A stretch of 63,383 nucleotides of DNA, filler included. It is 10 parts of 10 records of this genome, joined end to end, with 100 filler letters (N's around TTAATTAATTAA, not from the genome) between each part and the next. Parts side by side here need not be neighbours in the genome. Positions count along the whole stretch, not along the records: positions 22,708 to 29,585 come from SRR31147125_245122; 9 more parts are not named here. One strand, written 5' to 3'. Made by a program: the position numbers and the translations under genes. Under the pieces are notes generated by a model, which searched no databases, had not been told where the DNA came from, and worked only from the letters and a program-made list of their open reading frames with translations. Shown piece after piece: positions 22,708-27,462 of this stretch. Position 1 is the stretch's first letter; every line of letters starts with the position of its first letter.

Positions 22708-25700
22708 TGTGTGTGTGTGTGTGTGTGTCGCCTTTCTCATTCCTAGATTAGGAGTTGTCCACATGGACGCTCTCCAACATGGCCTCCAATACCCTCAATC
22801 GGGCTCGGATCGCACAACGTGGAGCTCTTCGTCCCCTTATCAAACTCCTCTATTCCAATTTCGACAAAGTCCAGTACGTTTTCCTGCACGATACGGAATC
22901 ACTTTGTTTGACACAGATTCGCAAGGTACTATGGTGTGAAGGCAATCAAGAATCTGGCACTGAACTTGGATAATAAGATCGGCCTCGTTCAAGAGGGAGT
23001 GCGCGAAAGGAGGACACACTCTCCCGTGGCTAACACGTGCCCAGGCTCTTGATCCTTTAATGCAACTTCTTCACGACACAAGCGATGAAACCATTTCCAA
23101 AGTCATTCAGCTTTTGTCGTTGTTGGCCCAGAGTCGTGCGTAGAAATGGGACCATGCATGGATGGACATCTTTCTCACCTTTTCTCTGAAACCAGGGGAG
23201 AATTTGGGGCCCTTCATGATGAGTGGTGTTGTGCACGAGCTCGTTGCCTTGATGCAGGTTCAGAAACATCGTGTAGGGGTAGATAAGGTTATGTCCTACT
23301 TGCAACTACACGGTACGCGACTCTCCCTCCCCTCGTTGGATCTCTCACCCATCACAAAGTGCAAGTGTTGCCGGTTGACCATCTCTTCTACTTGATGAAC
23401 GTGGAAGATGCGGAATTGCACGAAAAGGTTGCCTTCTGTTTCGCATTTTTGTGTAGTGAGGGTACGTCAGTCCGATTTGTGGTGTCGGTGTGCTTTGTAC
23501 ATCACTCTCCCTGTCCGAAGAGCAACGCAAACAAATTTTCTCGGAGAAAAAACGACACTCTGTGGAAAATCGTCTTAACTTGCGGTTTATCTACCCCGAG
23601 AACGCAGAGCGTGATGTGCAGAGAGCCGCGTCCACAGCTATGCAACTTTTGGGAAGGTCTGCCGCACAACGTGTACCATGGCCCTCCCAAACTCATTGTG
23701 TGTTCGAAAGATATGGAGCCGGATCCCCCAAATCGCCCGTCACCAAACGCCCCGTCAGTTCAAAGTGGCCCGATCGAGGATTGTGTGTGGCCCGGCCAGT
23801 CCCATCATGATTCCTCCTCTGATACTCTTGGTAGGTACGGTATGCCGCGCCGCCCAAGTAAGCATGCACTGTCGGAGTGTATCATTCCCGACGTCACTAC
23901 GTACACGTTCAATGTCTCTCTTCGAGGTGAGAAGGCAACCACATGCTCCGCTCTCTCTTTCTTCTCACGCGTTACACAGACTGGGTTGTACTTGAGAAGG
24001 GCCGCAAGCAAACAGTGACAGTGGAACGAGGAACCAAAGAGGACAAGGGAGGGACTATTCGTGTGTACAACAGCGAAGAGGAGTTGATTGTGACAATGTT
24101 CGTGGTGGGATTGATGAATGTGCCTCAGTCACCGACCCATCACAGTCCCACGCATCGACGCTTGAACTACACGGACCTCTTGCCAGACTTCTGTTGTCTC
24201 TATGGAGAGGACAAGGTTGCCTACGGTATGATGCACGTTCTCTCCTCTTGTCCCGGTGTCCCATACGCTTTCTAGGTTTCCTTTTCACGTCAGAAGACTG
24301 GAAGGCACTCTTCGCCTACCATGCTGTGGGCGGTCAACGCAAGAGTACACGCAAAAGGGAAGAGGCGAAGAAAACAGAGGTATGGAAGGAGAACGTCGAG
24401 GTAGGTGCGCTCACGTTCACCATTATTTCAGACAGAGGAAGACGAAGAAATTGTTGTACAGGAAGCGGAAGGAGGCCCCTTGACGAAGCGTCTCCATGAA
24501 CAAGGAAAAGAAAAGGTATGCAACGACACAAGATGACGTGTCATTGTGGCTAATGTCCATCCTCCTCCTTCTCTCTCTCTCCCTAGGTTCGTGGGAAGAT
24601 GCCCGTTCCGACTGCACCCCAGAAGAATGGCGAGGAGATCCCCGAAGACGAGAATGCATTCCTACGTACGAGTCTGACAGAAGAAGGTCGAAGGAAGCTT
24701 GGTGCATTTTTGGAAGATATCAGTGAGAGGTGAGTCTCTTGATCGAGTGCGCGTGAAGATAACCCCCTGCCACGATAGTGAATCGTCTTCTCTTTCGGAA
24801 CGTGATTCGGAAGACGATGAGCTCGGGGATATGACGCCTGGCAGGAGGTCATCGAATTTCATGGATACCATTTACGAACGAGAGAGTGACGGGGAGAAGC
24901 GACACGTGTGTTTTCGGGGTCTTGTTCTGGCCCGCACCCCTTCCTTACCTCTGTGCAGGCGGAACCGGGGGAACCCGATGAGGATCTTCACTTTACGAGC
25001 CGTTCCGGCTACAAGAGTACTCCCGAGACGTCACCCACCCGGGATCACGGGGAGACGACACACTCCGTGGGATCTGAGTTTACTATTGAGGTACTGGCCA
25101 CGCATCACTTCTTGTCACATGCAACAATCCCTCACAACTTCACGTAGGAGGACGTAGAAGACAATTCTTCTGCAGAAGAAAGTGATACAGACGTACAAGT
25201 GGGAGAGCCTGTGATTCCCGATGTCCCCTACGAAGGAGAAAGCAGGGGACATGCCATGATGAAGGCAGAGTATGATGAAGAGGACATAGGAGACGATACC
25301 GTGGATTCGGATGGCACACCGGCCCCGGTGCTACGTGAGAAGCGGCGCTCCTCCGCCGGAGCCGAAACGACGCGGCGGAAGTCTTTGCTTGATCTTATCT
25401 ACGACACGATGATTCAGGAGATGGGCGAGCTGCCTGATGAACCACCTGGTGCGTGGAAGGGTTGGATCTCGCCTCCTCGTTTGCATTCTCAGTGCATGAG
25501 GGGTTGGTGGCTTCAGAACGCGATCAGTTGCATCACCGACGACCGAAATCTGAACGAACGGAGAGACCTTCCTCATTCAAGGCGGAAGTGGAAGAGGGGC
25601 CAAGTGCTGACGTTGCAGCTCCAAAGCCTAGTGTGTCTCCCCAGCCAGAAACAGCTGGAGAAGTGCTGCACCGTATAGAGAGGGAGAAAGAGAGCCATCA

Positions 25701-27462
25701 CCGGCGTGATCGTACTCCTTCCATGTCCTCCCCTCCACCGCTGAAGGTTGTAGATGCGGTTCCCATTAAGTTTGAGGACGAGGAGGAAGATCTCACGGTC
25801 CATTCGTCCATGGACGAAGACGGTACAACCCTTGGAGAGTTGGTCTCAGCCATTTTTCACACTCACCACCCAGGTGTCTACTTCCCCGCACATGTGGGGG
25901 ATATCCTGAGCGGTCGTTATGCCATCGAACCGGCGGATCCTTCCCCAAATTGGGGACGGGACGCTTTTCCCAAGTATGGATGGCTCGTGACACGTACGTC
26001 CTGTTCCTCTAAGGGTTGCTTGTTTGATCTCTTCTGTTCGTGTAGGCAAACAAACGAGATTGTTGCCGTTAAGATCCAGAAGAATGCTGTGCATTGCCGT
26101 GAAATCGCCGTGGATGAGGTGAAACTATTGAAAGAGGTAGTTGGGGGTCGAATACGTTCCAAGGGGAACATGTCCCTGACAGATCCCCCGTGTACAAGGT
26201 TGCCAATGGCGATATGGAGCGAAGGATGCCTGTCTTGCACTTGCTCGATAGCTTTGAACAAAAAGGAGCACCAGGCAGTGATCCCCATATCCGTCTTGGT
26301 TGTGTGTGTGCACTCGGTGCTTGACGTCCTTGACAGACGTTACATGTGTGTATGGTGTTCGAGCCACTTGGCCACAATCTGTTGAAGTTGATTCGGGCCT
26401 ATGACTACCATGGATTGCCACTTCCTGTTGTGAAACATATCATGCATCAGATCCTTGTTGGATTGGATTACCTTCATTCCAAGTGCGTGCATGCTTTGGA
26501 CGTAATGCGCCGATCCTCAACCCCTTGCAGGCTTAGCATTATTCACACAGATCTCAAACCGGAGAATGTTCTTCTGTCGGAACCGTTTGCAGCGGTTCAG
26601 AGGTGTGTCATGAGTGCTCTCCACTTCCTTTGCGATTCACCTGCCTGGTTCAGTGGGGAAATAAGCGGTCGCCGTTTGTCCTTCCTGCCAAAGTGTGCAA
26701 CACCCCTTTTTTTTCATTTCATTTCTCATTCCGTCATTGTAGGACCTTTGACGTGAAGATTATTGACTTTGGGAATGCATGTTGGGTGCAACATCAATTC
26801 AGCGATGACATTCAGACGCGACAATACCGGGCACCTGAAGTCATTATTGGAGCGGGTTATGGAACACCTGCCGATATATGGTCTGCCGCATGTGTCGCTT
26901 TCGAATTGGTCACGGGCGATGTCTTGTTTGATCCGCGTGGTGGTCAATCGAGTGAACGTGACGAAGGTTGTGGGTTCTTGTTGACGGAATACGATGATTC
27001 TCATGCCATCCATGCCATCCCAGATCAACTCATCCAATTCATCGAGCTTCTGGGAGCCGTTCCCAAACACTTTGCACTATCGGGCCGTTACTCGTACGTT
27101 GTTGGGATGGATGGGCGGATGGACGAATGGACGAATGGACGAATGGACGGGTTTGATCTCTTTGACGTTTTAGGGGTGAGTACTTTGATGGGCGTGGCCG
27201 TCTTCGAAATCAGAAGAAACTCCCACCTCAATGGGCCCTGGGCCCTGTGCTTATGGAGAAATATGGTCTGAAGCCTCAGGACGCCACAGAATTATCTGAA
27301 TTCCTTATCCCCATGCTTCGGGTAGGCCCACAATCTCTTTGAACGCACCTAAATCTCTTGTAGTTTGAAGCAGATAAGCGTGCCACCGCAAGAGAGTGTC
27401 TGCAGCATCCCTGGCTTGAGGGCGCCGAGGCCGTTGTGACCACCGCGTTGCATCCACGTTGA
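22708..27462 (+). CDS. multi-exon eukaryotic gene: ARM repeats + EVH1/WH1-like domain + acidic linker + SRPK-family kinase (5' truncated)
   Basis: [79 protein letters not shown]. Manual splicing at GT-AG introns keeps one frame from ARM to kinase, with one C-run frameshift near 25945. Confidence 0.75.

Follow-up and report, generated by a model that had tools for sequence, protein, structure and literature searches.

Does a kinase of the SRPK family carry a long scaffold of its own at this locus, or do separate genes stand so close together that they read as one? The question is raised by a contig at positions 22708-29585 of a 63,383-nucleotide (nt) stretch of DNA (the window), on whose forward strand armadillo (ARM) repeats are followed by a β-rich middle module, an acidic linker and an SRPK kinase. 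An initial annotation had read all of these as one spliced gene fusing ARM repeats, an EVH1/WH1-like domain and the kinase. We find that a single ARM-module-SRPK gene is a tentative reading, to which we give somewhat less than an even chance. It is plausible because mostly strong introns and codon-biased exons leave no space for a normal intergenic region. As assembled, a break in the reading frame lies within the N-lobe of the kinase, and this break and an unusual intron downstream of it may outweigh the fusion in importance. Coordinates of all features are collected in Table 1.

An expressed and spliced SRPK kinase

The 3' part of the locus is a real, expressed and spliced SRPK. Three transcript-derived open reading frames (ORFs) agree with it at 100%, namely P0001 (327 amino acids (aa), TRINITY_DN1107_c0_g1_i3.p2), P0002 (291 aa, i1.p1) and P0123 (310 aa, i4.p1), all filed in EukProt EP00824 under the label Muranothrix gubernata, a ciliate. 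Aligned to the contig, P0001 falls into ten pieces at 100% and thereby fixes nine introns of 42-80 nt. Pfam matched Pkinase on 26334-26753 and 26537-27268, and the pairing of Arm upstream with Pkinase downstream that had been claimed is borne out, both families being matched on one strand of one contig. A search with the exon at 26744-26965 gave 1066 matches at E<=1e-5 among 1097 candidates; in the best 120 of these 1066, two showed 100% identity and the next best 74%. When PDB sequences were searched, the closest solved structures were SRPK2 (6.5e-99), SRPK1 (about 4e-95) and Sky1 (2.2e-79), with other kinases of the CMGC group, DYRK2 (2.9e-37) and CLK3 (3e-36), far behind. The spacer of about 20 aa that had been described is present at P0001 residues about 132-150. 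This insert between subdomains VIb and VII is in the place where a non-conserved spacer splits the kinase domain of SRPKs, and it includes a 14-aa micro-exon (26654-26692). The best 120 relatives carry kinase Pfam domains only, apart from one fish protein that also has PF03109.

At the 3' end of the kinase gene, P0123 keeps the intron 26967-27023 in frame, and both P0123 and P0002 read into the intron 27094-27173 and reach a TGA sooner. Splicing near the 3' end of the kinase mRNA is therefore incomplete or alternative.

Codon-biased exons upstream of the kinase

We evaluated the upstream exons with two scores trained on this assembly. The splice-site score was built from eight transcript-proved GT-AG introns, whose leave-one-out range is -4.6 to 7.9, and was compared with 1132 antisense GT-AG decoys (99th percentile 3.3, maximum 6.5). 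The codon log-odds table was drawn from the confirmed kinase coding sequence and a 1052-codon ORF from another contig; in a cross-contig check with the table of that ORF, the kinase scored 0.17 in frame versus -0.32 and -0.46 in the other frames.

The splice chain given in the initial annotation is mostly credible. Its seven introns are all GT-AG and measure 44-71 nt, and once they are removed one frame is open over 23980-25938, with the peptides quoted in that annotation inside it. Five of the seven (24380-24431, 24516-24586, 24906-24958, 25091-25147 and 25449-25492) score 6.1-13.7. The set does not stand in full: intron 24666-24723 is purine-rich, scores -5.3 and is probably wrong, and the frame-equivalent intron 24730-24778, with a GTGAGT donor and a score of 2.3 (98.4th percentile), fits better. 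An apparent stop, the TAG at 24273-24275, had been explained as an intron acceptor. It is indeed the terminal piece of a 50-nt GT..AG candidate (24226-24275), which scores only -1.7, the 92nd percentile of decoys and within the range of the transcript-confirmed introns. Codon log-odds are highest in the proposed frame for 8/8 exons of 23980-25938 (0.13-0.51), the stretches between the strong introns (84-501 nt) are open in one frame, and the last linker exon, 25493-25993, closes with the N-terminal motif of SRPKs. An ATG is absent from the exons at 24276-24515, and their translation therefore starts at or upstream of the middle module.

To see what an open path through 23521-25938 is worth, we ran a shortest-path search in which any GT-AG intron of 40-110 nt was allowed, on the real sequence and on 100 mononucleotide shuffles of it. 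On the real sequence 6 introns suffice (286 nt in total), along a path that differs from the proposed chain, and each of the 94 crossable shuffles needs at least 9 introns and at least 521 nt. Crossing took 9-15 introns in these 94 shuffles, 6 could not be crossed, and the antisense strand needs 11; the proposed chain with two upstream joins amounts to 9 introns. Because shuffles were crossed with 9-15 introns, openness alone does not point to that chain. The region is thus unusually open, and the chain is not singled out thereby. We kept the standard genetic code because TAA and TAG account for none of the 50 Gln codons in trusted coding sequence and the kinase ORF ends with TGA; a rare reassignment of TAA/TAG would render the intron 25091-25147 readable in frame.

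Upstream of the module, Pfam places one Arm repeat on 22752-22970 (E 5.6e-5, 23.5 bits, above the gathering cutoff of 20.6) and a second on 22964-23140 (E 0.024, 15.1 bits, below the cutoff). The frame of the ARM model has the best codon score in 6/6 exons, its five introns rank in the 96.7-100th percentile among the antisense decoys, and the product has about 225 aa that look like helical repeats. Position 22708 is the first base past an artificial joiner (22608-22707) and lies within a (TG)n run. Since it is a contig edge, the 5' part of the ARM gene is missing and the architecture read on this contig is incomplete.

The join between ARM repeats and module is less well defined. Unspliced, the ARM frame runs into a TGA at 23808-23810, and ATGs in the module frame stand at 23713 and 23842, the latter only 31 nt past that stop. 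The candidate intron 23783-23834 (GTGTGTG, 52 nt, 97.5th percentile) takes out this TGA when removed. A frame kept from the ARM region onward, as had been asserted, does not follow from the seven introns, none of which serves the ARM-to-middle join.

An orphan middle module

The middle module looks coding by codon score, at 0.23 and 0.25 for its two exons in the proposed frame, whereas the other frames give -0.24 to -0.56; the introns 23927-23979 and 24226-24275 score -1.3 and -1.7. Its first strand possibly lies at the end of exon 23711-23926. By eye, the module shows alternating short strands, an early Trp and a strand-helix ending (...YGF.F.SEDW.ALF), a pattern that is visually reminiscent of EVH1 and other PH-like folds, which are β-sandwiches capped by a C-terminal helix.

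Membership in the WH1 family (PF00568) is not supported, and the EVH1/WH1 label of the initial annotation found no backing in the searches that follow. No Pfam family was found at E<=1 on 23287-24015, 23931-24272 or 23996-24496, unspliced pieces that may miss a weak match to the whole domain; more widely, 11 of the 19 scanned stretches, those covering 23287-26321, gave none at this threshold. PDB sequences gave no match to the module exon at E<=10, and no sequence relative turned up in the protein searches described below. In the ESM atlas, the best value for the module was 0.81, to unrelated families and at noise level, with a recognition of 1654, below the 2300 mark. AlphaFold2 (AF2), run without an alignment on the 81-aa module exon, returned three strands at low confidence (predicted local distance difference test, pLDDT, 50.5), and a complex prediction for packing of exon 23982-24224 with exon 24278-24379 gave no verdict (score 0.01). 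Two matches to the module were rejected as relatives, P0121 because of its 12-fold tandem repeat and P0122 as a repeat protein of bacterial appearance.

A frame break in the kinase N-lobe

The single frame that had been proposed to lead into the kinase is not kept. The conserved GRYAIE is read in the frame of 25441 and the next conserved motif, the Gly loop KLGTGRFS, in the frame of 25776, so that the kinase core from the Gly loop onward lies in the -1 frame; the shift falls at about 25939-25956. The motifs stand only about 17 nt apart and no intron is possible there. Beside the break lies a six-residue insertion, PADPSP, at a normally invariant spacing, and the upstream frame, as assembled, terminates 45 codons past GRYAIE. 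The transcript ORFs begin past the Gly loop, and the remaining catalytic core, with the VAVK lysine, HxD and DxG, is intact. These starts, at the M of MARDT, apparently fit a break that is present in the RNA too, unless every isoform is truncated at its 5' side within about 170 nt of that M. By eye, the frame could be mended by a 63-nt GT-AG intron at about 25912-25974; this intron was rejected, as it deletes the conserved GRY...KLGTGRFS and misfits the ORFs that start with MARDT.

A heptamer at the break, C_CCA_AAT at 25944-25950, has the canonical slippery form X_XXY_YYZ in the upstream frame, and in-frame heptamers of this form occur 0 times in 1379 trusted codons. A programmed site would have a stable stimulatory structure 5-9 nt downstream. 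Past the heptamer we found none, only a small hairpin that starts right after the site, and when 60-120 nt of the spliced mRNA beyond it are folded, the energies give z of 0.02-0.55 versus shuffles. A real indel (pseudogene, allele or assembly error) is the likelier cause of the break, and programmed -1 frameshifting has a slim chance at best.

One gene or several

A single gene would be a long, many-exon unit on the forward strand running from the ARM repeats through the kinase. Its product would begin with the ARM repeats, whose start is lost at the contig edge, continue through the orphan β-rich module of about 130 aa and an acidic, Ser-rich, disordered linker of about 450 aa, and have the short-spacer SRPK kinase domain at its C-terminal side. 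Translated whole, it would be an SR-protein kinase whose N-terminal extension carries an ARM scaffold for protein binding. Such a fusion protein would exist only if recoding bypasses the frame break, or if the break itself is an artefact of assembly or allele. One mRNA for all exons, the exact ARM join, the module as a folded domain and the function are what we infer from this arrangement.

Several results weigh against a single gene. Given the break at 25939-25956, no single ORF links ARM to kinase as assembled. P0001, P0002 and P0123 are all labelled complete, and all start inside the kinase at the M of MARDT. If.p1 in the isoform names means the longest ORF of a transcript, as we presume from ORF-caller numbering, any upstream ORF in the i1 and i4 transcripts has at most 291 and 310 aa, against an upstream ORF of at least 818 aa predicted by the fusion. 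Neither Arm nor WH1 appears in the precomputed Pfam lists of the best 120 SRPK relatives (0 of 120). A word-index search found the module exon in no database protein of 145-2000 aa, and phmmer with this exon against 1.84 billion representatives gave no true relative and two repeat or low-complexity artefacts. The pre-kinase exon 25495-25938 was likewise found in no database protein of 260-2000 aa, a range above the 256-aa ORF that starts at ATG 25256. At the ARM junction, 56 frame-keeping GT-AG joins to the module are possible, which makes the choice arbitrary; the best introns there score low (-2.8 for 23671-23710 and 1.3 for 23783-23834), and around 23614-23760 all three frames are open with a sliding codon score near 0. 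This sliding score is itself noisy, windows in non-coding 27466-27560 reaching 0.4-0.54, and with its 24-codon window it was rejected for placing gene boundaries. Finally, the weakest link of the chain (24666-24723 or 24730-24778) coincides with an in-frame TGA at 24731-24733, and an ATG at 24833 lies 100 nt past that TGA, a possible gene boundary.

This TGA followed by ATG 24833 is the most plausible gene boundary, and it defines a two-gene arrangement that we regard as rather unlikely: ARM repeats, module and a short acidic tail (...AFLEDISER) would end at TGA 24731-24733, and a separate SRPK would start at ATG 24833, ordinary in size (about 650 aa) and with the usual disordered acidic N-terminal extension. 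The boundary would sit in the sole stretch of weak introns (-5.3 and 2.3), at a TGA that closes the unspliced frame, and a separate SRPK would match the kinase-only domain make-up of its relatives. The upstream ORF from ATG 24833 would have about 360 aa, counting the 256 aa from ATG 25256 and the exon parts before it, which would fit an unseen i3.p1 longer than 327 aa, and the transcript ORFs show no sign of a long upstream ORF. However, the boundary leaves only 99 nt for a 3' untranslated region (UTR), a promoter and a 5' UTR, versus at least about 530 nt from the kinase stop to the first possible ATG of the next gene, the sole measurable stop-to-ATG spacing on the contig. Moreover, 24779-24832 reads through in the frame of ATG 24833, within an exon that has a codon score of 0.22, and 24730-24778 is, at its percentile, a fair intron. 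The i1 and i4 transcripts would in addition need 5' truncation or intron retention, 360 aa being more than 291 and 310.

A boundary further upstream, with the ARM gene stopping at TGA 23808-23810 and a second gene starting at ATG 23842 (or 23713) to encode module, linker and SRPK, is improbable. It would account for the unspliced ARM frame meeting that TGA, for the ATG shortly before the module, and for an ARM/module junction that has neither codon signal nor a high-scoring intron. Yet it implies a stop-to-ATG distance of 31 nt, or overlapping genes, and candidate intron 23783-23834 removes the TGA itself. Still less probable is a non-coding middle region, in which the EVH1-like sequence would be a chance pattern in a UTR or intron and only ARM and SRPK (with some 5' exons) would be real. 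The want of any relative of the module, its atlas recognition, the low AF2 confidence and the low scores of introns 23927-23979 and 24226-24275 all suit this explanation, but the codon scores of the module exons speak against it. So do the strong introns at 24380 and 24516, by which the transcription unit extends upstream of 24380, where the exons have no ATG of their own. We thus return to the single ARM-module-SRPK gene, at the tentative level given above. Within it, an intact scaffolded kinase of ARM repeats, orphan domain and SRPK, produced at full length through a -1 frameshift at C_CCA_AAU and keeping the U12-type intron described below, is highly improbable. If this were true, the -1 shift would set the ratio of scaffold-only to scaffold-plus-kinase protein.

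A U12-type intron in the kinase gene

U12-type introns of the AT-AC kind begin with a /ATATCC donor, end in AC, and have their branch site, TCCTTRAC, some 10-15 nt before the 3' end. The kinase intron 26287-26343 has all of these features (ends, donor and branch site). Its removal is required by the three transcript-derived proteins, and of the four boundary choices compatible with the protein, none is GT-AG and one is AT-AC. For ciliates, a recent comparative study (PMC13685798) reports no minor-spliceosome small nuclear RNAs (snRNAs) and no U12-type introns. Either the labelled ciliate lineage keeps U12-type introns, or the contig stems from another eukaryote in the culture. Rfam found no snRNA over the window.

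What a fusion would mean

No ARM-kinase fusion is known to us within the SRPK family. Among the papers listed that link SRPK with armadillo or with protist domain architecture, we found no ARM-SRPK fusion described; the 'armadillo' passages of PMC11933671 concern a distinct ARM protein, tabulated for a pull-down, and an entry among the references. Were the single gene true, the N-terminal extension of an SRPK would bear folded accessory domains, an architecture found in 0 of the best 120 relatives, and this would suggest that an SR-protein kinase is targeted through a scaffold that binds proteins and not through its spacer. A link from proline-rich ligands to RS-protein phosphorylation, the function put forward in the initial annotation, is speculative. 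Were the genes separate, the locus would hold a routine short-spacer SRPK beside an ARM gene. Judged from sequence, the ARM-module-SRPK fusion is plausibly a moderately interesting candidate.

Contig limits, assembly make-up and neighbouring genes

The window consists of ten short, unrelated contigs joined by artificial segments of 44 N, TTAATTAATTAA and 44 N; the TTAATTAATTAA motif occurs 9 times in the window versus 0.01 expected by chance. In several other contigs (e.g. 1-7171 and 29686-56939) there are long ORFs of bacterial type that lack introns, among which we named by eye an Obg-like GTPase and a glycyl-tRNA synthetase-like protein. Since several contigs look bacterial, the assembly mixes eukaryote and bacteria. 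Rfam identified one tRNA over the window, on a bacterial-looking contig. The contig neighbouring that of the ARM exons and SRPK encodes a very large protein on the reverse strand (21964-22607 and 13827-21800), with repeated Cys-rich units (CR..A..CD..E.C.G....CP.D) that look disintegrin-like by eye and with many β-rich repeats; its region includes the uninterrupted 1052-codon ORF.

Downstream of the kinase, the product of 28086-29585 is presumably a pyruvate:ferredoxin/NADP oxidoreductase-like protein, as judged from its motifs. A pyruvate:ferredoxin/NADP oxidoreductase is expected of an anaerobic eukaryote.

Table 1. Features of the ARM/SRPK contig and limits of the contigs in the window
Feature	Positions	Strand	Basis or details
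Contig with ARM exons and SRPK kinase	22708-29585		Forward-strand genes
ARM-repeat exons, 5'-truncated	22752-23656	+	Pfam Arm, codon score, intron scores
ARM exon model	22752-22873, 22917-22998, 23045-23135, 23196-23312, 23360-23461, 23521-23656/70	+	
Junction of ARM frame and module frame	23657-23926	+	Candidate introns 23671-23710, 23783-23834
Orphan β-rich module	23980-24379	+	Exons 23980-24225, 24276-24379; introns 23927-23979, 24226-24275
Acidic/Ser-rich linker	24432-25993	+	Exons 24432-24515, 24587-24729, 24779-24905, 24959-25090, 25148-25448, 25493-25993
Two linker exons as in the initial annotation	24587-24665, 24724-24905	+	
Frame break within N-lobe exon	25939-25956	+	Adjoining conserved motifs in different frames
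Expressed SRPK ORF	25980-27462	+	327 aa, MARDT... to TGA, 10 exon pieces, 9 introns
Kinase introns 1-5	25994-26045, 26137-26198, 26287-26343, 26483-26530, 26603-26653	+	P0001 mapping
Kinase introns 6-9	26693-26742, 26967-27023, 27094-27173, 27322-27363	+	P0001 mapping
U12-type AT-AC intron	26287-26343	+	ATATCCGT...TCCTTGAC, then 9 nt ending in the terminal AC
Next gene on contig	28086-29585	+	Exon translations; runs off contig end
Artificial joiners	7172-7271, 12528-12627, 22608-22707, 29586-29685, 34697-34796		
Artificial joiners, remainder	40247-40346, 45412-45511, 51047-51146, 56940-57039		

Comparison with known systems

The module resembles EVH1/WH1 domains and PH-like folds by eye, and has no profile, PDB-sequence or atlas match. 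The upstream exons resemble Armadillo-repeat proteins (PF00514), with one repeat over the Pfam cutoff and one under it; unlike in those proteins, the N-terminus is lost here at the contig edge, hence no subfamily placement is given. For the kinase, human SRPK1 and SRPK2 and yeast Sky1p, members of the CMGC group in a family that phosphorylates RS repeats, are the nearest solved relatives by a wide margin. Identity to animal SRPKs is about 70-74% over exon 26744-26965, P0001 has a C-terminal HPWL as SRPKs do, and the N-terminal motif of the family, G.Y.P...GD...GRY, lies upstream of the kinase ORF. The spacer between VIb and VII is about 20 aa here versus hundreds in SRPK1/2. In contrast to SRPK1/2 and Sky1, the kinase described here is lengthened by six residues (PADPSP) and interrupted by a frame break in strand β1, before the Gly loop, its gene contains a U12-type intron, and ARM repeats and an orphan module may belong to it upstream.

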